Under the pieces are notes generated by a model. It was not told the origin of the DNA and searched no databases. It saw only the letters and a program-made list of their open reading frames with translations. The translations under genes and the position numbers were made by a program. This document shows positions 17,601-61,674 of a DNA stretch of 64,000 nucleotides, piece by piece (position 1 is the first letter of the stretch; each line of letters opens with the position of its first letter). Origin of the DNA: a virus (taxonomy: Duplodnaviria > Caudoviricetes); the IMG/VR virus record IMGVR_UViG_3300028591_000164, positions 17,948-81,947 of that record; one strand, given 5' to 3'.

Positions 17601-20019
17601 AACTAAGTTTGAAGATTTGTTTAGTAATATTGTGGCACAAACTGACGCAATGTAGAAAAAGAGCCATGGATACGATGTCGCGGCTTTAGCTTTTGGTGAA
17701 GATGGGAATCTAACTTCTGAAGCGGTTATAAAAATGTTAGATGCGAACGCGCCATTATTTAATACATATATAGATGAACATTTAACAGATAATATCATTA
17801 TTAAAAACACTTTAACTAGTATTTTTAATGAAGCTGGTTCTATTTTAAATAGCGCGGGCAATGCATTAGCCGATATGCGCGCAATTACTGGAACAAACGC
17901 AAGCATATTGTCTGATTTTGCGAAGAGCGCCGAAGAAGGCTTTGGCCGCGGAATTGATTTAATCTCTTCTGTGGATGGATAGTATACCTCCGCAGTACAA
18001 ATTAATAATCGCGGCATTTTTATTGGCTCTGATTAGTAGATTTCTTTATACTCTGGCGTAATTGGAGACAGTAGCGGCACATCTATTGATTTAAATCCGA
18101 AGAGATTAATTTTAGGCGTTTCTTCTGATTCTAATGGCACCGCCGCGAAATTTACAGAAAAGTATTTGGTACTTGCAGCGGGAGATATTATCGCCGCGAA
18201 TGAAGCATCAACAAATAATGAAGATAAAGTGAATGTTGGTGTAACCGGCACAATTAATGGTTTAGTTGGTGCAAAGTTCACTAAAGATTCTATTGGTTTT
18301 GCTACTTATGACAATAGTACAATTAATGCTATTTTAATGAATAATAAAGGTATTACTTTAGGAAGCGGCGTCATTGACCCCGTTGATGCGGAGAATAGGA
18401 GAATAGGTATTGACCTTAATAGTAATACTTAGACTCTTCGTAATAATAATAATACTGTTACTGGTGCATCATACGTTCGCATTTCTGGTGCCGGCATTGA
18501 CATTGGTTCTGGTGGAGAGCTATATGTTAGTACAAATAATTTTGTTGTTAATTCTAATGCTGGTATAGGTGAAGATATTTTTGTATTAAAGAAAGCGGAT
18601 GGCAACGGCGGCTATGAAAAGGCGCTAACTTATAATATTTAGGACGGCTTAACTATTAACGGTCGAATTTCTGCGCAAAGTATGGTTATTGGTGATTCCA
18701 CCGCGGGAAATCAATCACTTAGTAGTTGGGTTAATGCAAAAGTAACACCAGAGGCTATTTGGCTGGGTGTAGTTAAACATACGACTGGTAATAATAATGC
18801 TACTATTGGAAGTGGGACTAGTTTATCTATTACTGATGATAGTTTTTCAATTGCTAGTACCGGAACTCTTAGTGTAGATACTTCTAATGTCATTATTAAT
18901 ACCGCGGCGACAGAAAATAATGCTATTTTTAGAATAGGCGGGACTGGTGAAAACTATAAACTTTTATATAGTGAAAATGCTGGTTTGAAAATAAAAGGCG
19001 AGATAGCGGCGACCGCTGGTAATTTAGGTGGCTGGATATTAGGTGAACATAAGTTATATAGTGGCTCAGGAACAAATTATGTTGCTTTAGATAGCGGGAC
19101 TTCCAATGAAGGTTATGCTCTATGGGCAGGAAATGGTACATCAAGCTCCGCTCCATTTGCTGTTACACGAGATGGAAAAGTATATTTAAATTCATTAATG
19201 GTTTTAGATACTTGGGATGGAAGTAAATGGGAAATTACTTAGACCAGTACCCAAAATGATGGAAAACATGATGCTAATGGATTTACCCCCATTAATTTTT
19301 CTCGTTTAAATTTTAAGACAGCCATGACTATTACCCTTGGAGTCGATGGCGAGAATATCGTAGCAAGGGGACGTTTATGGAATACTTGGGAGTCGGAATC
19401 AACTTCTAAAAGTATATCACTTAGTGCTGGTGCTCTTGGCGGAACCGTAAACGCGGGTTCTAATTGGGATGCTCAAGGGAGTGCCACTGTTTGGATAAAT
19501 GTAGCAGTAGGAGGTTCAGCTGGGCCTACCTATCAAGTAACATGCCCGGTTAATGTTTATAATGCAACATCATGGGGCTGGGAAAGAGCTTATAATATTG
19601 TATAGGGGGCCTCAGTTAACGTAAATAGTAAAAAAGTTACAGGTCTACCAGGTTAGGCTCCTGGCACCAGTTCTACGTCAATTGATGTTAGCGATATATA
19701 TGATGCTGGTTATCAAGATGGAAAGCCTAATACTATTGAATTAGTAACTACATCTGGTTCTAATGCGGTAATAAGAGCAACTTCTACAGATGGGAATAAT
19801 TCATTAAGTTCTACACTATCTATGTCTGATATTTATAATGCTGGTTGGAATGCTGCTTTAGACGCATGTACTGGTGAAGAAGTTTTGGTCAATTATAGTA
19901 ATGTCGGTAATTATACTTTATATAAAGGTAATTATCCTTCAGCTCCTTCTGCTGGTACTGGATATTGGCGTTTAGGTGGTTCCACAACAACACGATATAG
20001 TTTACCTGATAGGAAATAA
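14629..20019 (+). CDS. Large tail-tip / tail-associated (Tal-like) protein with C-terminal beta-rich fibre region, 1796 aa (TAG=Gln)
   Basis: AGGAGG RBS and ATG at 14629. Ten track ORFs (14776 to 19822) are in the same frame, ending TAA 20017-20019. The N-terminus resembles phage tail-spike/prophage-tail domains (REMDSTELVTKLFV), followed by a coiled coil and a Gly/Ser/Thr-rich C-terminus. Confidence 0.7.
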
Positions 20020-20444: not shown

Positions 20445-21191
20445 TTAATCTTCTCCCCATTGTACTGTATTTATTTTAATTTTATTTGCAAAGTATTTTC
20501 CAATACATATTGCATCAGCTTCATCTTGTGTACAATTCTAATTGTACCACATTTTTACTTTATCTTGCGCTAGTTTCTTTTTATTTTCGCGGTGCTGGTC
20601 GCCTTCATTTATGCCGCAATATTTGCGCCATTCAGAGGCATATACTAAATCATGGTCTATACTTGCTTCAAATAAAGTATCAAGTAAAACGCCTTGTAGA
20701 TTAGCAAGCACCTAAAATGTTTTAACTTGCGCCTATGAAGCACTTGGACCAAACTTCTGTAATTGAATATTCTCAATCCCAACAAAATCTGGTTCCCATG
20801 CTTCGAGCGCGGCTTTAAGCCAATTTTTAACCGCATTAATTCTTTCTTCCGTTGGCAATGTACTATCGGGGCTATATGTCCCATAAGAAACTAGCTAACG
20901 ATTATCATATATTGAATATCCGGTTGTGCCTGTCGCGGCATCTAATCCCAATACTCGTTCTGTGTCAATCTTTTTGGTTGGCACCTTATTTTTTTTGATT
21001 TTATATGGGTCGCCGGCCATACACTATTCACATAGCATATGTTTGCGCCATTGCCCATATGTTTGCTTTTGTAAATGCCCTTCTGGACATTTCATTTCCA
21101 ATTCTGTATTTAAATTTTTATATTCAGTGCTAATCAATGTCCAATTGTTTTCGGCCAAATGATTAGCAACTGAATACACGTTAATTGGCAT
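20445..21191 (-). CDS. ruvC: RuvC-like Holliday junction resolvase with N-terminal CxxxH...CxxC domain, 248 aa (>=5 in-frame TAG)
   Basis: Manual translation gives RuvC motifs VLGLDAATGTTGYS, FVGIENIQ and DEADAICIG. The ATG overlaps the dUTPase stop (TAATG); TAA at 20445-20447. Missed by the ORF track. Confidence 0.8.
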
Positions 21192-21997
21192 TACTTACCA
21201 GTACTCCCAAAGCCACCTTCGTCACGCTCGGTAGCTGGAAGAATATCAACTACTTGTGGCTTAAAACGATAGGTAGGCATTACAATAAGCTGTGCGATGC
21301 GGTCGCCTGCGTTAATGGTATAATCAGAATCAGAAATGTTATCATATAGAATACCAAGCTCACCGCGATAGTCGCTATCAATTACACCAACGCTATTGCT
21401 TAAACGCAGTGGCGTCTTTGCGCCAATAGAAGAACGTGGTACAATATATGCAGTCCAATTTTCTGGTAGAGCAATTCGTACACCAGTCTTAATCTTATTA
21501 CCGACAGAATGCGCGGGAACAACTACTGTTTCGGCCGCGTATAGGTCAGCGCCGGTGTCTGTATCGTGTGCATAAGTTGGAACATGAGCTTCTTTTTCAA
21601 GCGCGATAGGAAGTTCAAAATCATATGTATGATAATGTTCAATTACTTCTCTAAATAGTTCTGTAATTGGGTCAAAAATTGCATGTAGTAGCGTGCTCTT
21701 ACTCGCGGAGGGTTGAAGAGTATCAAATATATCCTGTACATCATGCTCTAAACCAGCAAGGAACTCATGCGCACCGGCCTTATTTAAGCCGCGGGCTTCT
21801 AGACTATTAACAAGCTCTTTCTTGGACTTATCAATTAGTTCAGGGGAATACATGCTCTGAATTGTATCACGTAAATTTTCTGCAACCTGCGGAGTTAGTA
21901 GACTCTCGTCAAAATTCATAATCTGTGTAATTGCTTCCATTAGGGGGTTTAGTGTTTCGTTTTCTCCTAATACATCGGCTAGTTCATTTATATCCAT
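21191..21997 (-). CDS. dut: Trimeric dUTPase with ~125-aa N-terminal extension
   Basis: Motifs TGADL, PRSSIG, GVIDSDYRGE, GDRIAQL and ERDEGGFGSTG. Confidence 0.93.
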   Translation of the reverse strand: MDINELADVLGENETLNPLMEAITQIMNFDESLLTPQVAENLRDTIQSMYSPELIDKSKKELVNSLEARGLNKAGAHEFLAGLEHDVQDIFDTLQPSASKSTLLHAIFDPITELFREVIEHYHTYDFELPIALEKEAHVPTYAHDTDTGADLYAAETVVVPAHSVGNKIKTGVRIALPENWTAYIVPRSSIGAKTPLRLSNSVGVIDSDYRGELGILYDNISDSDYTINAGDRIAQLIVMPTYRFKPQVVDILPATERDEGGFGSTGK

Positions 21998-23820: not shown

Positions 23821-23852
23821 AAAAAGGTGGGGCGATTTTATTTTTTCGCCCC
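23821..23852 (-). terminator. Intrinsic terminator after the nrdD-nrdG-FNT operon
   Basis: GGGGCGA...TCGCCCC stem followed by ACCTTTTT, overlapping the FNT stop. Confidence 0.6.
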
Positions 23853-24395
23853 AAATGTGTGTGGAGAAATAAGTAATCCACCAATAATATTGCCAAGCAA
23901 AATAGCTATCCAATTTAAACTAAATTGACCAGCAGCTAAGAAATAGAAAGCATCCGCTATACAGTGATTAAACCCAGCCGCGATGAAAGCAAATACGCCC
24001 AGTACAGTGATATATAGTGGAGTCTCTTTATATGTTGCTAATGTCATTAAAGCACCGCAACCGATACCTTTCCATAGCGCTATGGAGAAATCTTGTTGCG
24101 CTTTATTTTGTCCTATTGCCGCAGCGGCTTGTTTTGCTTCTGGTGAAGCAATGAGAAACATCACGGCGATGCCAAATAAATTAAATATCAAAATTAATAA
24201 ATATTCATACCATTTATATTGTTTAGTAAATAAATATTGAACTTTACCAGTAAATAAATTATATTGCATTAATCTGACCGCGCATAAGCCGCAGCTGAAT
24301 AATAATGCTCCAATTAATGGGCTAGGCGCCATTACATATAACTAGCACCCAAGTCCAATACATAAACCCGCGAATATAGAATTAATTATTAGCAT
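23838..24395 (-). CDS. Formate/nitrite transporter (FNT, FocA-like) channel, compact 185 aa (1 TAG)
   Basis: Extends upstream through one TAG to ATG 24395 (MLIINSIFAGLCIGLGCQ). FNT motifs GALLFSCGL...LFTG, KGIGCG, FIAAGFNHCIAD and GNIIGG; six hydrophobic segments. Confidence 0.82.
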
Positions 24396-24876
24396 TGTTT
24401 TTCTCCATATAAATTATTCTTTGATTAGAAGAGCCACGCAATGGTAATGTAGTATCGCGCTTATCTTGTTCATAGCGCCCATCAATTAAACAATCAATTT
24501 CTGATAAAATCTTATCAATAATATCAAGTTTTCTTTCTTTTAATTCTTCAAGCGTATATCCAGTCCAAACATAAACAATTAAATCTGGATAACGGCTTTT
24601 GCACCAACTAATTAAAGCGTCTACCGCGGCGAGATTTTCATCACATAATGGTTCTCCACCTAAAATACTTAAACGGCGTTCTACGCCATTTTTATGTAGT
24701 TTATCTATAACCGTACTTATAGTGTTAAAATTAAATTCTTCACCATAATTAAAGTCCCAAGCTTCTGGATTATGACAACCGGGGCAATGGAAGTGACATC
24801 CAGAAAAATAAACTGAGAGGGAGATACCGGGTGCTGCCGCGGTATCGTCCCAATATATACCAGCAATTTTACTCAT
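24382..24876 (-). CDS. nrdG: Anaerobic ribonucleotide reductase activating enzyme (radical SAM)
   Basis: FSGCHFHCPGCHNPEAW (CxxxCxxC), SILGGEP and LRGSSNQR. Confidence 0.95.
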   Translation of the reverse strand: MSKIAGIYWDDTAAAPGISLSVYFSGCHFHCPGCHNPEAWDFNYGEEFNFNTISTVIDKLHKNGVERRLSILGGEPLCDENLAAVDALISWCKSRYPDLIVYVWTGYTLEELKERKLDIIDKILSEIDCLIDGRYEQDKRDTTLPLRGSSNQRIIYMEKNNANN

Positions 24877-25041: not shown

Positions 25042-27312
25042 TTAATGTATATGTTTAACGCGGTCTTCTGTTTCTTTTTGTTTGCCCCAATTAAAAGCAT
25101 CTTTGTAAGAGCCAGTTAAATAACCAGTAACCCTACGTAGACGAGAAATATTTTTACTGCCACATTCTGGACAAGATTCACCAATTTCATCTTGATAGCC
25201 GCAATCATTGCACATGTCTAGTGGCACGTTTATCGCGAAATATGGTATGTCCTTATCCATCGCATAATTTACTATGGTTTCAAGCGCATCAATATTATTT
25301 TTTACACCAGAAGGAACTTCTACATATGTTATACATCCCGCACTGGAATAACCAGTTAATTGCGCTTCAATATCAATCTTATCAAAGATAGAAATATCGT
25401 GCCATACAGGAACATGAATACTATTTGTAAAATATTCGCGGTCAGAAACATTAGGAATTTCACCATATTTTGCTTTGAATTTTTTCATCGCTGTGTAGCA
25501 TAAATTTTCTGCTGGCGTATAATATACACCAAAGTTAAGTTTATATTCTTGTTTAAATTCTGCGCAGCGCGTTTTAAATAATTGCTCAATACGTTTTGCT
25601 AGTTCCATGCCTTCTTCAGTTGTGTGGTCTTTACCGATTAGAATTTGAAGCGTTTCAGCCAAGCCCAGTTGCCCGATAACAATGGTGCCATGTTTCAATG
25701 CTGAACGAATTCCTTCTTCTGGATGGTAGCCAAGCATTGTATGGTTTTCATACATAAATTTTGCTGACGCGGGAGACTGTTTACAAATCCATTCAAAACG
25801 TTCAAGAAGCATGTCTTTGGCTTCATGGATTTTTTTGTCTAATAGAAGCATAAAGTTTTCTACTAAATCCGCTTCTTTCATTATATAATCGTTTTTATCT
25901 AGCTTTTCTTTTACTTCCATTGCCAATGTTGGCATAATAATAGTTACTGGGCAAATATTGCCGCGGCCATCTTTTGTTTGTGGATTAACTCCCGGTTCTG
26001 CATTGATGTCTGCGCCATTTGCGGTTCTGCAACCCATTGTAGAGAAGTAAGTTTTTGGATCATTTATATCATAGCCAGCATTGCCACTCCAATCAACATT
26101 CGCGTAGTTTGGATAAATACGCTTGGCAGTAGATTCAAGCGCGAGGCGGAACAAATCATAATTTGGATCGCCAGGAGCACGGTTTATACCTCTCATACAT
26201 TGGAAAATACCGCACGGGAAAATAGGAGTCTTATGGAACTTCCCTACACCCTTTATTGAACCTTCAAGCAACGCTTTAATTACCATGCGGCCTTCGGGTA
26301 GCGTACAGGTTCCATAATTAATAGATGTGAAAGGCAATTGATTGCCGCTACGAGATTGAAGTGTATTTAAGTTATGATACATGCCTTCAACTGCTTGTTG
26401 AAGTTCACGCATAGTCATATCCATTGCATATTTATAAGCTTTTGTTGTCTTTGCAGTTTGCACTAAAGGAAGTATTCTTTCGTCAACTGTTAAATTATGA
26501 TAAGGCTCAATGGGCATTTTAGAAATATCTACATTTAAGAAATAATGATTTTCATTATCTTCTTCAAACCATTTTAGGCCATCTTTGAAGTGCTTCCAAA
26601 AACTTTTTCTTACATAAGGAACCATAGTCCAATCTAAATGAGTTGCTGAAACTCCGCCAAACTACATTAAAGATTGAAGCTAAAATATAACTGCTACAAG
26701 TTGGAAAGCAGTATTAATTGAATTAGCTGGACGAACATCTGTTTGTCTCGTATTAAATCCTTTGGCTAGTAAGTCATCAAATGGAATACTTAAACAGTTA
26801 TGCATTCCTACTGCATAAGCGCTTAAATCATGAATATAAATTTCATTATTTAAATGATTATTTCGCGCCATATCTGACATACAGAAATCAAGTGCATATT
26901 GTTTCATCATTTCGTCGGATGCTTCACCAACGCGGCCACCAAATGAATGCTCATCAACATTTGCGTTTTGATTTTGAACATTTTTTGCTTGGAGCTTTTC
27001 ACTAATTGAGCGAATAAACTCATCAGAACAAGAGCGCATTACGCCGCGCTTATAACGATAACGAATGTAGGCTTTTGCGGTTAATTTATCATATTCAGTT
27101 AAGTAATCTTCTACTAATTCTTGAATTTCTTCAACATCTAGCGGCCTATCCATTTGTGTTGCCACTTCATATACATTATCAGCAATTTTTTTACCATAAT
27201 CTGGAGTTTTTTGTGTAAAATGAACATCTTTATATGCTTTATTTATTGCTTCAACAATTTTTTGAGCATCAAAGTCTACATAATCTCCAGAGCGTTTTCT
27301 AATTTGTATCAT
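25042..27312 (-). CDS. nrdD: Class III (anaerobic) ribonucleoside-triphosphate reductase with ATP cone, 756 aa (2 TAG)
   Basis: Two track ORFs join in frame across TAGs at 26680 and 26662, giving VIF(Q)LQSLM(Q)FGGVSATHLDWT. Also HNCL, TMGCRT, Zn site CNDC...CPEC and glycyl loop RRVTGYL. Confidence 0.95.
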
Positions 27313-51328: not shown

Positions 51329-51778
51329 TCATGTTAAAATAGTAGAACAACTTTTAATATAGTTGTCATAATCATTATCTTCAATAATTTTAATTACTAG
51401 TGGTAGTTCATTAATATCATCAATATTAAAGAATAAATCACAGCCGCAGAAGGTCATAAGTGATGTAGGTGCGTCTTCAATTTGAAGCACTACGATACGC
51501 TTTTTTAGTGCGTATGCGTATCCTTGTTCCCAATTACTTCCCGCAGAAGACATGCGGCCGCGGCTAATATATAACATACAATCACATTCATTAATTGCTT
51601 TTACATCAGCTTCAAATACTTTCTGTGCCCATTCTTCTTGCGGATAATCCCAAGCATTTTCAATTTTAAGCTCAAATGGGCAATATACTTCTAATTTATA
51701 TTTACGAAGTAACTTCGCGGCAGCGACCATTAGACTACGATTCTCGCTATCACATGGACCAGCCAGATAAATTTTCAT
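51329..51778 (-). CDS. Nucleoside 2'-deoxyribosyltransferase / N-glycosidase family protein #1
   Basis: IYLAGP, YCP, DVKAINECD and GSNWEQGYAYAL. Confidence 0.85.
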   Translation of the reverse strand: MKIYLAGPCDSENRSLMVAAAKLLRKYKLEVYCPFELKIENAWDYPQEEWAQKVFEADVKAINECDCMLYISRGRMSSAGSNWEQGYAYALKKRIVVLQIEDAPTSLMTFCGCDLFFNIDDINELPLVIKIIEDNDYDNYIKSCSTILT

Positions 51779-51793
51779 TTTTCTTTCCTTTCT

Positions 51794-52198
51794 TTATCTA
51801 TAATAAACAATTAAGCGCCATCCCCAACTAAGTGATTCCTTAGTCGCTGGGAAACTATATGTACTAGATATAGCACCTGGCATATCCTCAAAGCCATTGC
51901 CGCGATCTCGTTGCCATTGATAACGAATTTCTTCACAGTCTTCAAATCCTTCTAATGTACTAGTTAGTGTAACCATCGCGCCCTCTTTCATTACTGGTTT
52001 ACGGTTTGTAGCAATTGTTACTCTTTTTGGTATTGGCGTGGGTGTTGGTTCTGGAGTTGGGACGGGAGTCGGTGTGATTAATTCAATAGATGAATCTGGT
52101 TTGATAATATTAGAAATTTCTTGTTCTTCTCCAATAGAAAGAGATGTAAAGAATAGTAAAAATACTATGATTATAATAGGAATTATTTTATTTTTCAT
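51794..52198 (-). CDS. Exported or membrane-anchored protein: signal/TM, PTP linker, Ig-like domain
   Basis: MKNKIIPIIIIVFLLFF; TPTPVPTPEPTPTP; GAMVTL...YQWQR...PGAISSTY. Confidence 0.7.
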   Translation of the reverse strand: MKNKIIPIIIIVFLLFFTSLSIGEEQEISNIIKPDSSIELITPTPVPTPEPTPTPIPKRVTIATNRKPVMKEGAMVTLTSTLEGFEDCEEIRYQWQRDRGNGFEDMPGAISSTYSFPATKESLSWGWRLIVYYR

Positions 52199-52677
52199 AA
52201 AGTATTTTCCCCCTGTAATTCCCAGATTAAAATTTGTAATAAATAACAGCGAATGGTAGCATCTATATAAATTGCTGGATTGTCTTCTGGAATATCTTTT
52301 AAAGTGGTGCCAAATGCATCAAATGCTTCTTTGGCCAGGTCTAAATTTTGTCCAACATAAATTTGACAATTTTCTTCTGTGTCATATCCGGTTTGATTGC
52401 CTGTGATGTAATCAACATCCCATAATCTGTCTACTAAGTCTTCATCGGTTAATGAAAGACCATTTTCGCGGCAATAATCATAAATTCGTCCTTTTTCATC
52501 TTCATAATAATTATAATTATCAACCATATATTTATCAACTATCGCGATACATTCATCTAGCATTTCATTGGCTTTTTCATATCGCGCGCGAAGTTCACCA
52601 GTCGGGTCACAATACTGAGTTTCTGTATCCACGTCAATACGCAATGATTCTAATTGCTCTAATAATTCTTTCTTCAT
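52195..52677 (-). CDS. Hypothetical acidic protein, 160 aa
   Basis: Track ORF; WDVDYITGNQTG motif. Confidence 0.6.
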   Translation of the reverse strand: MKKELLEQLESLRIDVDTETQYCDPTGELRARYEKANEMLDECIAIVDKYMVDNYNYYEDEKGRIYDYCRENGLSLTDEDLVDRLWDVDYITGNQTGYDTEENCQIYVGQNLDLAKEAFDAFGTTLKDIPEDNPAIYIDATIRCYLLQILIWELQGENTL

Positions 52678-52680
52678 AAA

Positions 52681-53103
52681 TTACCACCAACTTATATCAC
52701 TTATATCTTCTTCTACTCCGCAATGCGGACAAACTGCGACATAACCAGTACTAAATCCAGTATTATATGGTTTAATATAAAATGCGCGACCAGAGTTAAT
52801 TTTGCTGCCATCCCAGCAATCTTGATGGCGTTCACAAAAATCTTTCCATTTATTTAATTCTTTTTCAGTATGAAAACTACCATAGGAAAAATGTAATCGT
52901 GCCCGCAAGGATTTATTTTCTTCTTCAAACTCATTATGAATTTCAGCCGCGACTTCTTCTCTTGTTTTTGCGGCTGCGGTCATTGCGCGTTCCGCTACAT
53001 CTTGATAATATGTTAAAGTGTCAGTAATAATTTTATTTAATTCCACTGCACTATCACATATTTCAACGGTTTCACGTGTTTTTGAATCTATTATTGTTCT
53101 CAT
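52681..53103 (-). CDS. Hypothetical protein with C-terminal CPHC, 140 aa
   Basis: Track ORF trimmed to the ATG after a GAGG RBS. Confidence 0.6.
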   Translation of the reverse strand: MRTIIDSKTRETVEICDSAVELNKIITDTLTYYQDVAERAMTAAAKTREEVAAEIHNEFEEENKSLRARLHFSYGSFHTEKELNKWKDFCERHQDCWDGSKINSGRAFYIKPYNTGFSTGYVAVCPHCGVEEDISDISWW

Positions 53104-53104
53104 A

Positions 53105-53395
53105 TTATTCCTCTGTCGCGCTAAAACCAATTACTTTAAGAGCAAAACTATTAGCAAAAACTTCTTCAAGCCACTTGTCAACATTATGAATTATAATAGA
53201 AGAGAACTCATTACTAAAATCTATATTAGATAAATCTTCATAATCAACAATTGTTATATCTCCATATCCAAGAGAATTGGCTTTTACTTGAAAGGCTCGT
53301 TTATTTTCTGTTACTACTAGTGCTTTATTTTCACGGGCATATTGTAAGAGTTCTTTTGCTTTGCCGCTATCGCGACCGCGAATAATTGTTTTCAT
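53105..53395 (-). CDS. Small protein with a degenerate P-loop (GRDSGKA)
   Basis: Track ORF; N-terminal beta strand followed by a GxxxGK-like motif. Confidence 0.5.
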   Translation of the reverse strand: MKTIIRGRDSGKAKELLQYARENKALVVTENKRAFQVKANSLGYGDITIVDYEDLSNIDFSNEFSSIIIHNVDKWLEEVFANSFALKVIGFSATEE

Positions 53396-53913
53396 ATTTT
53401 TTTCTCCATATTACTACAAAAATTTTTAACCGCGTCATAAGTAGTCATAATCTTTCCATTCATATAGGCTTCTGGGTCCCATCTATAAGCCGCAAGTTCC
53501 AGTTGCTGGCGATATTCATCGTCTGCGTATAATTGAAGAATTTTCTCTTCATAATCATCCTCAGCATAGGGTTTAAAAACAATATGATATTCATCATGGT
53601 CAAATGGATCAACAATTTCTACACCAAAATCTGGCTCATTAGTAATTAGCTGATAATCTTCGCCATAGACATCGTTAGTATAATATCCCTGTACTGGCCA
53701 CGCGGCGAACATCCAGCATTCAAATTTATCCCATTCTTCATTATAATAAACAAAAGGATAATATCCTGTTCCCCAATCTAGCGGCGGAAATTCCCACCTA
53801 TCAATATCTTTTACATCTTCAAGGCAATGCGCCTGAAAACTTTGGTCAGTAGAATAAAAACCAATTAAAGTTTTTTCCATAGGAAAATATTCTTGTATTG
53901 TCTTAAAATCCAT
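53392..53913 (-). CDS. Hypothetical acidic/aromatic protein
   Basis: Track ORF trimmed to MDFKT. Confidence 0.55.
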   Translation of the reverse strand: MDFKTIQEYFPMEKTLIGFYSTDQSFQAHCLEDVKDIDRWEFPPLDWGTGYYPFVYYNEEWDKFECWMFAAWPVQGYYTNDVYGEDYQLITNEPDFGVEIVDPFDHDEYHIVFKPYAEDDYEEKILQLYADDEYRQQLELAAYRWDPEAYMNGKIMTTYDAVKNFCSNMEKKI

Positions 53914-53918
53914 ATTAA

Positions 53919-54254
53919 TCACCAATCATATTCAAGGTAATAATGGTAGCCGTTTTCTGTAATTTCTTGAAAAGAATCACGCATACGGCAAAGAATAGGA
54001 ACATTAGTATAGTCATCCCAATAATCTGGATATTCACAGGCAACTTTAATCATTTCTTCAATATTATCATAAGTGAGTTCAATGTAGTCGCCGCTTTCGT
54101 AATCTTCTGGAATAAACGAGCAATGCTCTACAAGGCTCCACCACTTACGCGCGTAAAGTATTTCTGTTACAGCATCAGAATTATACCAATTATCTGTTTC
54201 AAAAACCTTACGAGTTCGTGCTTTAAAGATATACAAATCCATTCCCATAATCAT
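53919..54254 (-). CDS. Hypothetical phage protein (MGMDLY...YARKWW type)
   Basis: Track ORF; promoter TTGACA-17-TATAAT at 54277-54305. Confidence 0.6.
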   Translation of the reverse strand: MIMGMDLYIFKARTRKVFETDNWYNSDAVTEILYARKWWSLVEHCSFIPEDYESGDYIELTYDNIEEMIKVACEYPDYWDDYTNVPILCRMRDSFQEITENGYHYYLEYDW

Positions 54255-54291
54255 ACTTCCTTTCTTCTTTTTCTTTATTATACACTAAATT

Positions 54292-54519
54292 TTATTTTTT
54301 GTCAAGTTTAAATTTTTCACATTTTTCAAAAAGTTTTTTATTATCATAAAAACATTCTATACAATTACCGTTCATACTATCCATAGCACCAAATTCACGG
54401 CAGCCAGTTAATTTTTCCATACGTTTACGTAAACTTTCTAATTCATATTCAGTATTGTGAAGAAAGATAATAATTTGTTCTTTTGTCTGTTCTTCTAAAA
54501 ATTCATCATCTGTATTCAT
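54292..54519 (-). CDS. Small Cys-containing hypothetical protein, 75 aa
   Basis: Track ORF trimmed to the ATG after AAGGAG. Confidence 0.5.
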   Translation of the reverse strand: MNTDDEFLEEQTKEQIIIFLHNTEYELESLRKRMEKLTGCREFGAMDSMNGNCIECFYDNKKLFEKCEKFKLDKK

Positions 54520-54551
54520 AAAATTTCTCCTTTTAAGTCGCGCGGCGACCA

Positions 54552-54738
54552 TATTTTTATTTATTGTTTTTATTTAATATTTTTATTTATATTTATATTA
54601 TATTTATATTACTCATACGATTTTCGTGGACATATCCACGATTTTCGTGGCAATGCCACGATTTTCGTGTATACCTTCCACGATTTTCGTGGATGGATGC
54701 CACGATTTTCGATGCAATGAATGCCACGATTTTCGTGG
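54552..54738. repeat. Iteron-like array: six copies of the 15-bp quasi-palindrome CCACGA-TTT-TCGTGG next to a ~60-bp almost pure A/T tract (probable replication origin)
   Basis: Copies start at 54615, 54636, 54656, 54678, 54700 and 54724. The AT tract is 54552-54611. The array is immediately downstream of an initiator-like wHTH gene. Confidence 0.8.
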
Positions 54739-55116
54739 TTATCCATCAGTTAAATCTTTTTTATTTTTTAAATTTTCATAATCCACTGGCAGCACAGGAG
54801 TAAAAGTATATACATTTTCTTTTCCCTCTACTGGTGTAATATATCCTTTGGCTTCAAGTTCTTTTCGCGCGGATGTGGCACCATTCTCTCCAAGTCCTAA
54901 TTCTTTTCTTATTGCCGCGGGAGAAAAGTAAAAATAATCTTTGCCATACCAGCGTAAAAGATAACGCCAGATTTTATAAGCATTTCCGTTTAAGTTGCGC
55001 ATCGCCGCGGCTTCCCATTTAAAATCAATAGGTTGAATAAAACGGTTTCCTTCTTTATGTGTTATTTTATCTAATTCTGTAAGATTTAGACGTAATTGGT
55101 TCATATAATTTGGCAT
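54739..55116 (-). CDS. Winged-helix replication-initiator-like protein, 125 aa
   Basis: LNGNAYKIWRYL...FSPAAIRKELGLGENGATSARKELEAKGYI resembles phage/plasmid Rep N-terminal wHTH domains; its stop abuts the iterons. Confidence 0.6.
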   Translation of the reverse strand: MPNYMNQLRLNLTELDKITHKEGNRFIQPIDFKWEAAAMRNLNGNAYKIWRYLLRWYGKDYFYFSPAAIRKELGLGENGATSARKELEAKGYITPVEGKENVYTFTPVLPVDYENLKNKKDLTDG

Positions 55117-55130
55117 ACTTTGGTTCCTCC

Positions 55131-55322
55131 TCAGCCGCTTTGCTTATGATTCTTACTGAGCTTAGATATTGCGGCCTGCAATTCTGGGCTATCTTCAAAT
55201 AGCCAGACATCAAATTGTGGATGATATTCATTTATATCCGTGCTAATAATTTTAAAGCCTTGCTTGCGTAATGCAAATGCTAGCCAACGGGTATAAATTT
55301 TATAGGTTTTAATCTCTGTCAT
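55131..55322 (-). CDS. Small phage protein (DUF5659-like), 63 aa
   Basis: YKIYTRWLAFALRKQGF...VWLFEDSPELQAAI. Confidence 0.5.
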   Translation of the reverse strand: MTEIKTYKIYTRWLAFALRKQGFKIISTDINEYHPQFDVWLFEDSPELQAAISKLSKNHKQSG

Positions 55323-55494
55323 TTTTCATAACCTCTTCCATTCTCATTAGTAAGCTCATAGATGGTACTCGTAATCCATTAAAAATGCGGCCTAAATGTG
55401 TACGACTACATTCTATTTTTTCTGCCGCGAGTTGATAAGTCCATCCTTTTTGTTTAATAAAATCATAGTATTTGTTAATAATTTCTTGTATCAT
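55309..55494 (-). CDS. XRE/Cro-type HTH regulator, 61 aa
   Basis: WTYQLAAEKIECSRTHLGRIFNGLRVPS. Confidence 0.75.
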   Translation of the reverse strand: MIQEIINKYYDFIKQKGWTYQLAAEKIECSRTHLGRIFNGLRVPSMSLLMRMEEVMKNDRD

Positions 55495-55605
55495 TTGACG
55501 TTTTTGGCACCTCCCTAATAAAAAGAAATATTCCTATCATAAGATAGGTAATATTTCTACATTTCATTTCTATTAAATTATAACATAAATTTTATTTTTA
55601 ATCAA

Positions 55606-56913
55606 TTATAGAATAAACATTAATACGAATAATGCTGCAAGAACATACATAAGCGGATGGATTTCTTTAAACTTTCCACGTACCATTTTAATTAGTACAT
55701 AAGAAATAAACCCAAATCCAAGTCCATTAGAAATTGAATATGTAAAAGGCATTGCTACAATTGTTAGGAATGCTGGAATTGCAATTTCTAAATCTGTCCA
55801 ATCAATGTATTTTACATTCTTAAACATTAGAACGCCAACAATAATTAATGCTGCGGCGGTTGCTGCTGATGGAACGACACCCGCGAATGGAGCAAGCACG
55901 CAAGAAAGTAGGAATAAAACACCAGTTACGATTGATGCCAATCCTGTGCGCGCTCCCGCTGCTATACCGGCGCTAGATTCTACGAAACTTGTGATAGTAC
56001 TAACACCTGTAAGTGCGCCAGTACAGGTTGCCGCCGCGTCAGCAATTAAAGCTTTTGTCATTGTTTTGTCTTTGACATTACCGTTCTCATCAATCATATC
56101 ACATTCAGCAAGTGTCGCGGTAAGTGTACCAACAGAATCGAAAGTATCAATAATTGCGAGTGTAAAAATAGAAGTAAGTAGCGGTACAACACCAGCAGAT
56201 AGTAAGCCAGTAAAAGATAATTTAAAGAAGACTGGCGCTACACTTACGCTGGCAAGAGAAGTAATATTAACATTTGTTACTCCCATTGGAATACCAATTA
56301 GTGTCGCAGCGATAATGCCAATAAGAATTGCGCCTTTTACTTTGAAAATCATTAATAGTGCTGTAATTGCTAGACCGATAATAGCTAGCAGACCAGGACC
56401 AGAAGTAATTAGACCAAGGTCTAGGATGCCATTAGCAGTCTGAATGATGCCAGCGTTAAAGAAAGCAATTAAAGTAACAAATAAGCCGATACCAACACTA
56501 ATTGCGCGTTTTAGTGCGGCTGGAATAACATCAATGATTTTGTTACGAAGCGGCGAGAGCATAATGCCAAGGAATACAAGACCGCTAATAAATGTAATAC
56601 CTAGGCATTGCTGCCAAGTATAGCCCATTTTTAAGCATAATGTATAAGCGAAAAATGCATTAACACCCAGTCCGGTGCTTTGTCCAATTGGCGCGTTGGC
56701 AATAAAGCCGGTTAATAGCGTGCCAATTGCAGAAGCTAGTGCTGTCGCGACTACTAGTGCGGTATAATCCATACCAGTTGCTCCAAGAATAGATGGATTA
56801 ACAACTAGAATGTATGCCATTGCAAGGAAGGTAACGAGTCCACCAATTACCTCGCGGCTAATAGTTGAACCGCGTTCAGTAATGTGAAAATGTGAATCAA
56901 GAAAGTTTCTCAT
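55606..56913 (-). CDS. NCS2 AzgA/PbuG-like purine (adenine/guanine/hypoxanthine) permease
   Basis: EVIGGLVTFLAMAYILVVNP, GLGVNAFFAY, DTFDSVGT, FVESSAGIAAGARTGL and MPFTYSI. Confidence 0.92.
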   Translation of the reverse strand: MRNFLDSHFHITERGSTISREVIGGLVTFLAMAYILVVNPSILGATGMDYTALVVATALASAIGTLLTGFIANAPIGQSTGLGVNAFFAYTLCLKMGYTWQQCLGITFISGLVFLGIMLSPLRNKIIDVIPAALKRAISVGIGLFVTLIAFFNAGIIQTANGILDLGLITSGPGLLAIIGLAITALLMIFKVKGAILIGIIAATLIGIPMGVTNVNITSLASVSVAPVFFKLSFTGLLSAGVVPLLTSIFTLAIIDTFDSVGTLTATLAECDMIDENGNVKDKTMTKALIADAAATCTGALTGVSTITSFVESSAGIAAGARTGLASIVTGVLFLLSCVLAPFAGVVPSAATAAALIIVGVLMFKNVKYIDWTDLEIAIPAFLTIVAMPFTYSISNGLGFGFISYVLIKMVRGKFKEIHPLMYVLAALFVLMFIL

Positions 56914-58187
56914 CTTTTTTTCTCCTTTAAAATAAGATTTAAAATAATACCAACAATCATTGCAAGTGCAGTGGTCCCAATGCTTACAATACCAAAATTA
57001 CAAACTGCCCCGGAAACACCAAGGGTTAAAACAGAAGCAATGATTGTGACATTTTTATTATTATTATTTAAATCAATATTATTATCTTTAATAGTGCGGA
57101 TACCACTTAATGTAATGTATCCATAAAGTACTGCGGCGCAGCCGCCGAAAATTGAGCTTGGAATACTTACTAAGAAGGCTTGAAGTGGTCCAAAGAATGT
57201 AGCAACGCCCATAATAACGGCGGCGAGACTAATTACATAGCGAGAACAGATTTTACTAAAACCCGTGGTTCCAACACTTTCGCCATAGCTTGTATTTGGT
57301 AATCCGCCAATAACACATCCGGCCGCAGTAGCAATACCATCACCAATTAGTGTCTTACCAAGTCCAGGATTCTGTGTTAGATCTGTGCCAATAACGGCGC
57401 TTAAAGCCTTATGGTCACTAGTATGTTCCGCGATTGTAACTAGTGATAGCGGTAGGAATAACATTAGAATCTGTGGTAGTAATGCCCAATCAAATGCGGC
57501 AAAGTGTATAAAAGCAAAATCAGGAATCTGAATCAACTTTACATTATTAAATACAGAGAAATCAATAATTGGTACACCACAAACTGTTAATATCGCGGCG
57601 AAAGCATATACAATTAAAATAGAAAATAGGAATGGTAGATTTTTAATAAATCCCTTACCATAGTGCGAAATTAACGCGGTAATTGCTAATGTTAGCATAC
57701 CAAGTCCAACGCCAAGCAAACTATATTCACCATTAATTTGGAAATAGGTTGGAATAAATGTAGCAAGATTTAAACCAATAACCGCGACGATTGGCCCGAT
57801 AACAACGGGCGGTAAAACTTTATTCATCCAATTGGTGCCGCATTTATTAATAATTGCTCCAATCACACAGTAGACAATACATACAATGGCACCGCCAATT
57901 GCTACTGCGGTATAATTTGGGGCTGCGCCTAACGCAAGTCCACCGATTACCGCGGCAACAAATGCGCCAGAAGAACTGATAAACATGGGGCTTTGACCAC
58001 GTGTACATAGCTGATAGATAAGAGTGCCGATACATGCGCCAAGCATCGCTGGTGCGATAGGTAGGCCGCAAATTTGTGGAATAAGAATAGTAGCGACGAA
58101 GCAAGCAACAACTTGCTGTAAAGCCGCTACAATTAAGCGTTTTACTGGTAGTTTGTCATTAATATTATATAACATATTACTTTCCAT
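56910..58187 (-). CDS. NCS2 UraA/PyrP-like uracil-xanthine permease
   Basis: PPVVIGPIVAVIGL, LVTIAEH, PGLGKTLIGDG, PNTSYGES and LYGYI..SGIR; ATGA overlap with the purine permease. Confidence 0.92.
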   Translation of the reverse strand: MESNMLYNINDKLPVKRLIVAALQQVVACFVATILIPQICGLPIAPAMLGACIGTLIYQLCTRGQSPMFISSSGAFVAAVIGGLALGAAPNYTAVAIGGAIVCIVYCVIGAIINKCGTNWMNKVLPPVVIGPIVAVIGLNLATFIPTYFQINGEYSLLGVGLGMLTLAITALISHYGKGFIKNLPFLFSILIVYAFAAILTVCGVPIIDFSVFNNVKLIQIPDFAFIHFAAFDWALLPQILMLFLPLSLVTIAEHTSDHKALSAVIGTDLTQNPGLGKTLIGDGIATAAGCVIGGLPNTSYGESVGTTGFSKICSRYVISLAAVIMGVATFFGPLQAFLVSIPSSIFGGCAAVLYGYITLSGIRTIKDNNIDLNNNNKNVTIIASVLTLGVSGAVCNFGIVSIGTTALAMIVGIILNLILKEKKR

Positions 58188-58365
58188 TTTTTACCTCACT
58201 AATATATTTTTCAATATATTCAATAAATTCTTTATCTTCCATATAGAAGCAATCTTTTGTTGAGAGAATATTAGACATAAGTTGAGCCAGCCGCCAATCT
58301 GGGACATTGCTCCAAGCCGCGGCTAGCATATCACAAATTTTGTTAATGCGATGAGTGTCTCTCAT
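58177..58365 (-). CDS. Hypothetical phage protein, 62 aa (MRD..RI...W...PDWRL type)
   Basis: Track ORF overlapping the permease start. Confidence 0.6.
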   Translation of the reverse strand: MRDTHRINKICDMLAAAWSNVPDWRLAQLMSNILSTKDCFYMEDKEFIEYIEKYISEVKNGK

Positions 58366-58366
58366 A

Positions 58367-59080
58367 TTATCTCCATTCTGAATTTAATTCTTCATCATTT
58401 TCATTTTCTTCTGCTGGTTCAACTTCAGTGTAAAAATAAAAATTATCATCTTTTTTAAATTGATTTTGTAAAATAGGAATAATTTCATCAAATGAATTAT
58501 GTAATGTATGGTCTGCTGTTGCGTATAAAATCATACCATATAGCATCTAATTGATAGAAAAACTGCGGCGCCAATCTTTTTCATTTAGATGGTTTGTGCG
58601 AATATCAAAATAATGAGCATAATTTTTCTTGGTAAGAATACGATAAATTTCTTCCCATACTTTATTGTGCATTTCATTAACTAATTCTAGACAATGCTCT
58701 TTATTTCCTTCATCAAATTCTTGGCGATGTTCTTCTATAAAAGCTTCTTCTAAATCGAGCAATTTATCTGCCATATATTTCCATCCATACAATACGCCCA
58801 TCTCACACATAGTACCAATGGCGCTCTGCTCTGGGCATAAAACAGTATAATCACTATTCCAAAGGCGTTCAATATCGGCTTCACAGATTTTTTCTGCTAA
58901 GTGATTATTTTCTTCTTCGGTCATACTAGACTTATCATTGATGGATTTATTCTAAACCGGGCTATATACCTCACCAGGTATTCCCGCAGCTTTGAATTTA
59001 TCATATTCTTCTTGGCGTGCGAGATTAGAACCATGTGTCATAATATCGCCGCCTAAATATCCGAGTGGTTCTTTATTCAT
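58367..59080 (-). CDS. Nucleoside 2'-deoxyribosyltransferase family protein #2, 237 aa (2 TAG)
   Basis: Manual extension: GYLGGD...VYSPV(Q)NKSIND...ADIERLWNSD...GTMCEMG...SIN(Q)MLYG; TAA at 58367-58369. Confidence 0.72.
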
Positions 59081-59243
59081 TCGAGTCCTCCTTATGGGTT
59101 AAATCCCAAAGAATATCATACATTTCTTGTTTAAATCCTTCTGGTTGCTGTTCTAGTGGTAGCATCCACCAAGCCAATCCAGCATCGGGATGACGATTAA
59201 AATATTCGTCTATCATTTCATCATAAATTGTATGTTCAGACAT
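59073..59243 (-). CDS. Hypothetical protein, 56 aa
   Basis: ATG after AGGAG; promoter TTGACT-17-TATAAT at 59269-59297. Confidence 0.55.
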   Translation of the reverse strand: MSEHTIYDEMIDEYFNRHPDAGLAWWMLPLEQQPEGFKQEMYDILWDLTHKEDSNE

Positions 59244-59300
59244 ATTTTTTCCTCCTAACTTTTTCTTTATTATAACATAGATTTTGGAAAAAGTCAAATA

Positions 59301-59333
59301 AAAAAAGTGGAGATAATATTTCTATTATCTCCA
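59301..59333 (-). terminator. Intrinsic terminator
   Basis: TGGAGATAAT-6-ATTATCTCCA followed by CTTTTTT on the minus strand. Confidence 0.8.
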
Positions 59334-59334
59334 T

Positions 59335-61674
59335 TTATAGATTATCTACATTACTTAATTGTTGCTATAATCCTTGAATAATATCTAACATTCCTGCCAT
59401 AAAAACTAAATTTATTGTTACTTTAGATTCTGCTTCAGATTTTACATAGTTCCAACGTTCTTCGGGAGAACTATATTGTTGAGCCGCTCTTAAAGTATTA
59501 TAACTAATTGGATTATGTAACTCTATTTTTGTAGAAGCGTTATTATAAATTATGCTTCTTTGTTTTTCTGTAATATCTTTTGCAACAAGTTCTAAATTAT
59601 TACATATCTCTGTTAATATATAAGATTGAGGAAAATATAAATCATTAACAAATATTAAATGTAATGCTCCAGGTGCGGCGGCGCGTACATTTTCAGAAAG
59701 ACTTTCTAAAAAATTTTTTGCATTAGCAAATCCATCATCAAATAATACCATAGCTGCGCCAGCGAGCAGATAATCTTTTAATGCTTGTTCATATCCACGT
59801 CCAATAACAGATCCATCAAAAGAATTTAATAATGCTGTAATAATTGTTTCAGCATCTAGTATGCTGATTCCACCAGCGTCTAACATGCTAACAATATTAG
59901 GAATAGCATCAACAACTTTTCCGCCGCCTCCTAATGATCCTTCATGGAATCCTTCATTTATATAAGCAGTGTCTTCATATTTTTTTACACTAATGCTAGT
60001 TGATAAAAATTTATATAATTGGTCTATTTTATCTTTTTCTTGCTGTGTTTTTGCTTTTTTAAGAGCTTTTTCTTTCTATCGAGCTAATTTTTTTAATTCA
60101 TCTACATATGCTTTTTTAGCTTCATCAATATTAGTATGGCCGCTACTTCTTTTATTATAATTAGTTAAAAAGTTTTTACCAAAATTATTAATTTTATTTG
60201 TAATTGCATCATATTGTTTTTTTGTCAATGTTTGTTGTAGTTCTTCAAATGGAACCGGATTTAAAAAATAAGAGATTAATAAATCAGATTTAAGTTTAAT
60301 TAATTTTCCTGGAATATAAGCCGGTCCGTAAGAATACATTGCTGCCTATACTGCTGCGATAATTTCTGCATAATCTGGGCCAGTAATATTAAAATTATTA
60401 ATACTAGAAGCTAATATGTCACGTATATCAATTGAATTGTTATTGACTAATGTTTGCTATAAAATCTAAATAAGCTAATTACGCTTTTCTTTTGCCGCAC
60501 CTTTTAAATTATTGAGTCTTTTTTTAATTTCCGCATGTAATGCTTTAGATAAAACACCCTTAAGTCCCGCGATTTGCTTGGGTGCTAATTCATTTTTTTT
60601 TCCGGTTTGGAGAGCATCATATGCATCTTTTATAGGGGTTATTAATTTATTATTTTTATAAGAAGTAGAAGAAAATAAATCTTGTCGTATATCATTATCT
60701 AATAATTCAAATAAATCTGCTAAATTTTCACCGTCTTTTTCTGCTTTCTAAATAAATTGCTCAAGTCGGTCAGATCCAGTTTTTTCTATCCATGTAACTG
60801 CATTTGTGTAAGACTCTTCTATATCTTGAGTGGCAATTGTTTTAATAGATTCGGCAATGGCTTGTGATAGTTTATTAATATTTAATTGTTCGTCGGATGC
60901 TAAAGCTGCCAAGGCCATATTAAAAACTTTATTTTTGATAGAAGAAACAGACGCGCCATGTGATATTGCTGATTGAGCTGCTGTGATAACATCATCGCTA
61001 AGTAAAATTTGCGATAACTAATTTTTAATATTTTTAATATTAAAATTATTTCCCTATACATGGCCATGATTTTGTTTTAATGCGGCCTATACGCCCTCTC
61101 TTACTCGTGGAAATTTTCCAAGACGGTGCATATGTTTAATAGATTTTTCACTGATAAAGGGAATATTATCTTCATTCTCTATTATATTTCCATCTTTATC
61201 TTTTTTTGGGCTGAATTTTATATCACTTGTATAATTGGTTAATGCTTTAGTAATTTCAGATAAATTAGATTCATGGATATGCAATGTTTCTTTATATTTT
61301 TCATAACTTGTATAGGCCACATTTATATCTTGAATAAATGTTAAATAATTAAAACTTCCATCTTTATTATAATCTTTTATTTCGACTCCTTGTTTACTGA
61401 CAAGTTCTATGAATTTTTTTTCTTGTGCTAATTCAGCTGAGGCCCAGTTTCTTAATTTATTTATATAATCTGCAATGTATGAAGTAACTCCTTCTTCATT
61501 TTGTTTTTCAATAGTAATTTTTGATAAATTAGATAAATTTGCAACCGCTGTATTTGCAACACTTATTCCAGCCGCTCCTTCTTCATACAAACTAGAAAAA
61601 TAGATGTAGCGCCCCCATGATGGTGGCTAAAAATTAAATTGCTATCGTCTTGGTATTGATTTTTTTTTAGCCAT
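59335..61674 (-). CDS. Large hypothetical protein, 779 aa (>=10 TAG)
   Basis: Track ORFs 61087-61590, 60076-60339 and 59365-59886 are in one frame. The gaps were read manually and contain only TAG. ATG at 61674; TAA at 59335-59337. Confidence 0.78.

Follow-up and report, generated by a model that had tools for sequence, protein, structure and literature searches.

A conserved operon in TAG-recoded gut phages pairs two nucleobase permeases with a deoxyribosyltransferase-family enzyme

A large phage from the sheep gut, represented by the unclosed 81,947-bp viral contig IMGVR_UViG_3300028591_000164, encodes a compact operon in which two multi-pass permeases of the NCS2 family—one resembling the pyrimidine carriers UraA/PyrP, the other the purine carriers AzgA/AdeP/PbuG—are translationally coupled to an enzyme of the nucleoside deoxyribosyltransferase (NDT) superfamily, with a second NDT-like gene a short distance away. 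We analyzed the last 64 kb of this contig (the window; 64,000 nt, positions 17,948 to 81,947, 34% GC), together with relatives recovered from viral catalogues. The module recurs across this phage group rather than being a one-off, and its permeases are under strong purifying selection. On balance, we think it probable, if far from certain, that this conserved, self-contained operon imports free nucleobases and rebalances DNA precursors at the level of 2'-deoxynucleoside 5'-monophosphates (dNMPs).

Five coupled genes, encoding orf56, NDT-like #2 (NDT2), orf62, the UraA/PyrP-type permease and the AzgA-type permease, lie under one strong sigma-70-like promoter. In order of transcription, the features of the operon and of the downstream NDT-like #1 (NDT1) are:

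59308–59333, minus strand: terminator-like hairpin with an 11-bp stem and a T-run, closing the upstream 779-aa gene
59269–59297, minus strand: sigma-70-like promoter, TTGACT-17-TATAAT with an extended -10 TG (11/12 matches)
59073–59243, minus strand: orf56, a small acidic 56-aa protein with an AGGAGG ribosome-binding site
58367–59080, minus strand: NDT2, 237 aa, open only when two TAG codons are read as glutamine
58177–58365, minus strand: orf62, a small open reading frame (ORF) of 62 aa
56910–58187, minus strand: UraA/PyrP-type NCS2 permease, 425 aa, zero TAG codons
55606–56913, minus strand: AzgA/AdeP/PbuG-type NCS2 permease, 435 aa, zero TAG codons
55533–55548, no strand assigned: weak palindromic hairpin 3' of AzgA, where the next promoter-like site (55605–55577) overlaps
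51329–51778, minus strand: NDT1, 149 aa, zero TAG codons

Coupling is tight throughout: the orf56 stop overlaps the NDT2 start as ATGA, NDT2 and orf62 are separated by 1 nt, orf62 and the UraA-like gene overlap by 11 nt, and the two permease genes again share an ATGA. An earlier note on this DNA, made from the letters and a list of ORFs, had described the same genes, strand, coordinates and overlapping ends; orf56 was absent from its list. The operon promoter is identical in a complete relative (G001), a TTGACA/TGTTATAAT site resembling it precedes NDT2 in another relative locus (L138), and both small ORFs are found in G001 (orf56 conserved, orf62 with 92% identity), with different small ORFs filling the orf62 slot in other lineages. 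NDT1 lies 3.8 kb downstream of the operon, beyond approximately 12 small ORFs without a family match. The flanks consist of phage genes—PhoH/PIN and ClpP upstream, and a helix-turn-helix (HTH) gene and small ORFs downstream.

The same module is present in two complete relatives: G001, a 179,225-bp IMG/VR contig with a CheckV completeness of 100%, where protein identities reach 97–99%, and G002, a 166,678-bp genome with direct terminal repeats, where a small ORF is followed by NDT, UraA-like and AzgA-like genes and then, 2 kb on, by NDT1. A profile scan recovered at least 12 further IMG/VR contigs from at least 10 metagenomes that keep the order PhoH, NDT2, UraA, AzgA, and protein searches with the UraA-like permease returned more than 120 clusters at ≥83% identity, many of them on contigs of 140–190 kb. 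Linkage between NDT and permease genes, which the earlier note had proposed to survey in viral catalogues, held across lineages. The carriers form a clade of ~165–190-kb animal-gut phages that read TAG as glutamine, and their hosts are probably Clostridia.

Permease alleles within this clade fall into near and distant sets: UraA alleles are either 78–97% or ~42% identical to the window copy, and AzgA alleles either 65–99% or 35–38%. Gene order is unchanged across all of these swaps, with AzgA missing in some members (L007 and L008). That a permease can be replaced with the surrounding architecture kept argues for selection on function. Ratios of nonsynonymous to synonymous substitution (dN/dS) were 0.03–0.14 over the four genes (UraA 0.04–0.07, AzgA 0.03–0.12, and the two NDT genes 0.04–0.14), and for the two permeases they narrowed to 0.03–0.07 when only unsaturated comparisons were counted.

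TAG is used unevenly within this recoded genome. Reading TAG as glutamine opens long genes in this contig, including the tape-measure gene, whose product exceeds 4,200 residues and which has 132 TAG codons, and in the structural genes TAG makes up ~45% of glutamine codons. The region from 20 to 64 kb, a minus-strand arm of replication and nucleotide-metabolism genes (among them dUTPase, an FNT channel, NrdG, NrdD, DNA polymerase, PhoH/PIN and ClpP), is TAG-poor, and no tRNA, hence no suppressor tRNA, is encoded within the 64-kb window. As the earlier note had observed, neither permease has an in-frame TAG in the window, and usage is close to zero across the clade: TAG relative to glutamine codons amounts to 0/67 in AzgA and 2/147 in UraA (both probably within over-extended starts), compared to 6/79 in NDT2. 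Being nearly TAG-free, the permeases can be made under the standard code, and the suggestion that they act early is, for them, a reasonable one.

The UraA-like permease matches PF00860 at 211 bits (cut-off 27) over residues 18–395 of 425, and aligns to the E. coli UraA structures at 1.7e-53 with 35% identity; its best match among 400 Clostridia genomes is 44% identical. With E. coli UraA and Bacillus PyrP (NCS2/NAT, COG2233) it has in common the family of 14-transmembrane (TM) folds, E241, G289 and E290, and a place on the UraA/RutG side of the family tree. In a quick tree with long branches, the phage sequences, including the divergent G002 allele, form a clade (support 97) that is sister to a Clostridia-only clade (98), and both fall on the UraA/RutG side of a well-marked split (SH-aLRT 100), apart from XanP, XanQ and UacT. 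The phage and sister clades also have two motifs in common, AEHxxDHK in TM8 (AEHVGH in UraA) and YGESVG in TM10 (YGENIG in UraA). In the sister clade, the permease gene adjoins that for uracil phosphoribosyltransferase (upp) in four of ten loci and another phosphoribosyltransferase (PRTase) in four more, which makes uracil the best guess for the substrate of the subfamily. From these sequence comparisons, we infer that the phage protein probably imports uracil or a related pyrimidine.

The AzgA-type permease matches PF00860 at 134 bits and phrog_27398 over its full length, and its best solved relatives are the structures of plant AZG1 and AZG2. Aligned with the four E. coli paralogues from the K-12 record, the window protein and the rest of the phage clade conserve T38, D267, T271, D298, E318 and S319, residues that we take to be functionally essential in AdeP (numbering checked against the K-12 sequence), with valine in place of I317. 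When placed in a tree alongside 48 bacterial sequences, the phage proteins fall in a single clade (SH-aLRT 100) nested in gut Clostridia (99), adjoining uncultured Clostridia metagenome-assembled genomes, Oscillospiraceae and Lachnospiraceae. These placements indicate that the permease was captured once from gut Clostridia; together with the sister relationship of the UraA-like clade, they supply the donor phylogeny that the earlier note had proposed. The best bacterial identity is 62%, and no phage genes neighbor those bacterial loci. GC content at third codon positions (GC3) is 27% in the phage gene versus ~60% GC in donor-like loci, which shows that the capture is old. The protein thus resembles the bacterial and plant purine permeases of COG2252 (E. 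coli AdeP/AdeQ/GhxP/GhxQ and plant AZG1/2) in length, conserved residues and nesting, and differs from them in being encoded by a phage, in having phage codon composition and in sharing no more than 62% identity with any bacterial protein found. It is predicted to import a purine base; the E. coli paralogues are the outgroup in the tree and do not discriminate adenine from guanine/hypoxanthine for the phage proteins. The division into one pyrimidine-type and one purine-type permease, already made in the earlier note, is borne out by profiles, structure matches, trees and the AdeP residues alike.

The two NDT-like proteins keep the catalytic machinery of their superfamily but differ from classical NDTs where the substrate's 5' end is bound. 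NDT1, a member of a small family of 334 representatives, matches PF05014 at 65 bits, has an AlphaFold model with a pLDDT of 95.8, and carries an invariant catalytic triad of Tyr4, Asp58 and Glu84. Classical NDTs bind the 5'-OH through an Asp/Asn pair, whereas dNMP-acting members have small uncharged residues there (PMC12884076). In NDT1, the 5'-OH-binding Asp, normally located six positions ahead of the nucleophilic Glu, is replaced by Ser78. The Asn, which in 6evs and 1s2d belongs to the NLM motif contributed by the neighboring subunit, is replaced by Ser106 in an SLM motif that 47 of 50 members share. This Ser/Ser pair is of the small, uncharged kind, and NDT2 conforms in part, with Ala87/Ser86 at the Asp position. 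Given these substitutions, NDT1 is more likely to act on dNMPs than on deoxynucleosides as a true transferase.

NDT2 matches phrog_1817 over the whole profile (E 4e-36), scores below the cut-off for PF05014 (24.5 bits), and has Tyr8, Asp69 and Glu93 invariant in 27 homologues. Both of its TAG codons fall at glutamine columns: Gln178 is invariant, and position 43 is mostly Gln, with Met in a few homologues. The protein has a variable helical insert and its model is of lower quality (pLDDT 66), with 7m5h, CtNDT and DNPH1 as the best fold matches; searched against sequences in the PDB, NDT2 alone gave no match, and its profile one at only E 1. Members of phrog_1817 are common in phages of Staphylococcus (Kayvirus), Vibrio and Clostridium (C. 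sporogenes), with 478 phage records holding an NDT2 homologue at ~33% identity; none was noticed beside permeases in these isolated phages, and we found no report of a tested function.

A precedent for dNMP-level chemistry is DmtZ of PurZ0 phages, a phage enzyme of the NDT superfamily that, like NDT1, lacks the Asp/Asn ligands of the 5'-OH; it hydrolyses dAMP and transfers deoxyribose-5-phosphate to a base (PMC12884076). The likeness is one of residues and published description, and the settings differ: DmtZ belongs to phages with Z genomes and a Ser-type PurZ0, usually with a DutZ fusion, whereas the phages described here have an Asp-type PurA-like protein, no such fusion, and linkage to permeases.

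The rest of the genome supplies a context of precursor synthesis. The window encodes the dUTPase, FNT channel and anaerobic reductase genes that the earlier note had named:

21191–21997, minus strand: dUTPase
23838–24395, minus strand: FNT channel
24382–24876, minus strand: NrdG
25042–27312, minus strand: NrdD

Roughly 7 kb past the end of the contig, the complete relatives carry genes for a PurA-like protein, a dNMP-kinase-like protein, an RNA ligase, RNase H and a DNA ligase:

L150:9620–10699 (G001): PurA-like, an adenylosuccinate-synthetase homologue of 359 aa (phrog_1211, E 2e-36)

Thymidine kinase (TK), deoxynucleoside kinase (dNK), ThyA, ThyX and TGT were not found in G001 or G002, and the only PRTase candidate was one weak match in G002. 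In both relatives, the PurA-like protein reads YGDEGKG at the GDEGKG motif and so keeps the catalytic Asp13. Its nearest homologues in isolated phages are found in Vibrio Va1-like phages, Rhizobium T4-like phages and cluster C mycobacteriophages, not in known Z phages; the best match to it, at 37%, came from MT835469.1, a 176-kb human-faecal record labeled 'Bacteriophage sp.' that may be a human-gut relative of the carrier group.

We propose that host RNA polymerase would transcribe the operon after infection from its consensus-like promoter, and that the two TAG-free permeases, inserted into the host membrane, would let the cell take up more purine bases and more of a pyrimidine, most likely uracil, by proton-driven transport. 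Host phosphoribosyltransferases would convert these bases to nucleoside monophosphates, and the phage NrdDG with its formate channel, dUTPase and, in the complete relatives, the PurA-like protein and dNMP kinase would push the pools toward A/T-rich deoxynucleoside triphosphates (dNTPs), the mix called for by a genome of 34% GC. NDT2 and NDT1, rather than serving as classical nucleoside transferases, would cleave or re-base dNMPs, releasing an unwanted base and possibly moving deoxyribose-5-phosphate to an imported one. This differs from the earlier note, which had the NDTs feed imported bases into deoxynucleoside pools; the Ser/Ser pair of NDT1 and the lack of TK/dNK genes in the complete relatives make that route doubtful, and action on dNMPs fits them better.

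Several observations weigh against parts of this proposal. The UraA-like permease falls below the cut-offs of the NCBIfam uracil permease model (NF007995, 255 bits versus 477) and of the superfamily model TIGR00801 (229 versus 291.8), and its pocket departs from that of UraA/PyrP: H245 is replaced by Asp and N291, the Asn of the NAT signature motif, by Ser, both also in the Clostridia clade linked to upp, and F73 by Gly, which is seen in 12/12 phage sequences and in 0/32 sequences of the bacterial sister clade, where Phe is kept. The substrate may therefore be something other than uracil, and F73G could widen or shift specificity. Early expression is not a clean description of the operon as a whole, since NDT2, its first large gene, needs two TAG read-throughs; TAG scarcity is, moreover, general in this arm, so that of the earlier inference only the part concerning the permeases stands. 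Contigs from a sheep-gut RNA library (X2) are identical to the operon but likewise to all of its flanks, and in a second RNA run (X23) five of the eight listed contigs on an 18-kb stretch fall in the operon; such contigs may hold DNA, the runs were picked for containing the stretch, and they are no proof of transcription. Concerning the enzymes, a 50-member NDT1 profile matches the NDT structure 6evs at 3.6e-27 and DNPH1 at only 1e-3, the best Foldseek matches of the NDT1 model are likewise true NDTs (TM-score 0.7–0.8; E 1e-8, versus 1e-4 for DNPH1), and the invariant Asn163 of NDT2 may fill the role of Asn123, although the model is poor in that region.

These fold and profile affinities, and the intact catalytic triads of both proteins, are what would be expected under classical salvage of the Lactobacillus/Borrelia type, in which true NDTs place imported bases on deoxyribose and host deoxynucleoside kinases convert the products to dNMPs. 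Borrelia indeed pairs base uptake with an NDT (PMC2764106), and one phage NDT has purine transferase activity (bioRxiv 10.1101/2025.10.22.683976). We nonetheless regard this explanation as unlikely: NDT1 lacks both 5'-OH ligands and NDT2 the Asp, the complete relatives encode no TK/dNK, and the two phage NDTs from unmodified genomes in the same study showed no transglycosylation. The phage-only F73G substitution lends itself to a different interpretation, namely that the altered pocket lets the permease bring in an unusual base, which an NDT-type enzyme then places on deoxyribose or deoxyribose phosphate for DNA modification, as DmtZ does in supplying the Z base (PMC12884076). Retention of the NDT–permease linkage across lineages and the PurA-family gene of the relatives would also suit such a role. 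It appears improbable, however, as the AzgA pocket is ordinary and none of the expected modification genes turned up: the PurA-like protein keeps Asp13, whereas 147/147 phage PurZ/PurZ0 sequences have Ser at this position (PMC12884076), so that it is not a PurZ and a Z genome (2-aminoadenine) is not indicated, and no TGT/DpdA, thymidylate-synthase-family hydroxymethylase or ThyX gene was found in the relatives, on which basis we reject the 7-deazaguanine and hydroxymethyl-pyrimidine routes.

Two other scenarios were considered. The permease genes, being of bacterial origin, could be morons of benefit to the host, with which an infected or carrier-state cell scavenges bases, and have no direct role in phage DNA replication; having their own promoter and no TAG, they are expressible by host machinery alone. 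Their location in the replication and nucleotide arm and their coupling to an NDT gene of phage type, readable only with the phage code, make this improbable to us. Alternatively, the region might be an assembly chimera or an insertion of host DNA in a single contig, a concern prompted by a GC content of 0.397 in the 56–58-kb bin compared to ~0.33 around it. That possibility can be dismissed as practically nil: the same junctions recur in independent assemblies, including the genome with terminal repeats, contigs from another study's DNA run span the region, and GC3, at 27%, is phage-like. The complete relatives and many independent contigs thus rule out a chimera, and the earlier note's contention that flanking phage genes speak against a host insert is sustained by relatives that keep the module and by permease dN/dS values of 0.03–0.12.

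Our proposal of base import with rebalancing of dNMPs also admits a more specific version, which we put forward as tentative and rather doubtful: NDT1, and perhaps NDT2, could be natural deoxyribose-5-phosphate transferases that re-base dNMPs from host DNA with the help of both importers. The lineages from which the permeases derive have ~57–65% GC around these genes, and a host of such composition would yield G/C-rich dNMPs. If this version were true, G/C deoxynucleotides would be turned into A/T(U) deoxynucleotides using imported adenine/hypoxanthine and uracil/thymine, supplying a share of the 34% GC genome without a reductase, nucleoside kinases or thymidylate synthase.

Phage-borne auxiliary genes of nucleotide metabolism are familiar, and their products nearly always act inside the cell. 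By tblastn against 50,697 phage records, the two permeases gave 33 and 38 matches; those examined came from multi-contig or 'UNVERIFIED' records, contamination or prophage flanks, and the remainder were not checked singly. For instance, the match in MG065691.1 (L130; 'UNVERIFIED: Campylobacter phage A11a, complete genome') is the E. coli yieL-adeP-tnaB locus, and MT835725 is an unverified virome scaffold. MG065691.1 is itself not a clean phage record, as it holds an enterobacterial chromosome segment with genes for a LamB-type porin, adeP, a LysR regulator, an MFS pump and a tnaB-like permease. A DNA-level search of the phage collection gave no match, and full-text literature searches found no paper describing NCS2 permeases in phages. 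The rarity of such permeases that the earlier note had claimed therefore stands for isolated phages, in that none was verified among the matches examined, but not for this group, where the tandem pair is the usual state.

The closest cellular analogue is Borrelia burgdorferi, in which, likewise, a parasite with limited nucleotide synthesis joins free purine-base uptake to an NDT-family enzyme, BB0426, to provide DNA precursors (PMC2764106). Borrelia is a cellular organism, however, that has no ribonucleotide reductase, and its BB0426 acts as a true transferase on purine nucleosides; the phage, by comparison, has NrdDG, NDT-type enzymes without the 5'-OH ligands and, in addition, a pyrimidine permease.

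Throughout a clade of abundant gut and rumen phages, as yet uncultured, two multi-pass importers are retained under strong selection, and their alleles have been replaced more than once. This pattern suggests that phage DNA synthesis in these hosts is limited by free-base uptake from the gut lumen. If so, infection would alter what the infected cell takes from its environment. The proteins of the operon are also compact candidates for study: the F73G pocket may provide new NCS2 specificities, and the NDT-type proteins may be natural enzymes that exchange bases at the dNMP level, which would be of biotechnological interest.

Three further features of the contig were noted in passing. Between PhoH and the permease operon lies the gene closed by the terminator-like hairpin (59335–61674, minus strand), a 779-aa ORF without a Pfam or PHROG match and with 12 in-frame TAG codons (29% of its glutamine codons); it aligns with its counterpart in a relative at 39% identity over 335 aa only, compared to 96–99% for the flanking genes, and has the character of a hypervariable, late-type gene with its own terminator. 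Immediately 3' of the HTH_36 gene, positions 54553–54745 hold six or seven 15-bp palindromes, CCACGAAAATCGTGG, spaced 6–14 bp apart and followed by a ~70-bp AT-only stretch with ATATAAATATAA repeats. Three of the palindrome copies were scored as hairpins in the terminator scan, and the arrangement looks like candidate iterons with an unwinding element, as at a replication origin, or like an operator array. Finally, the sequence CCGCGG occurs 57 times in the 81,947 bases of the whole contig, despite its 34% GC.

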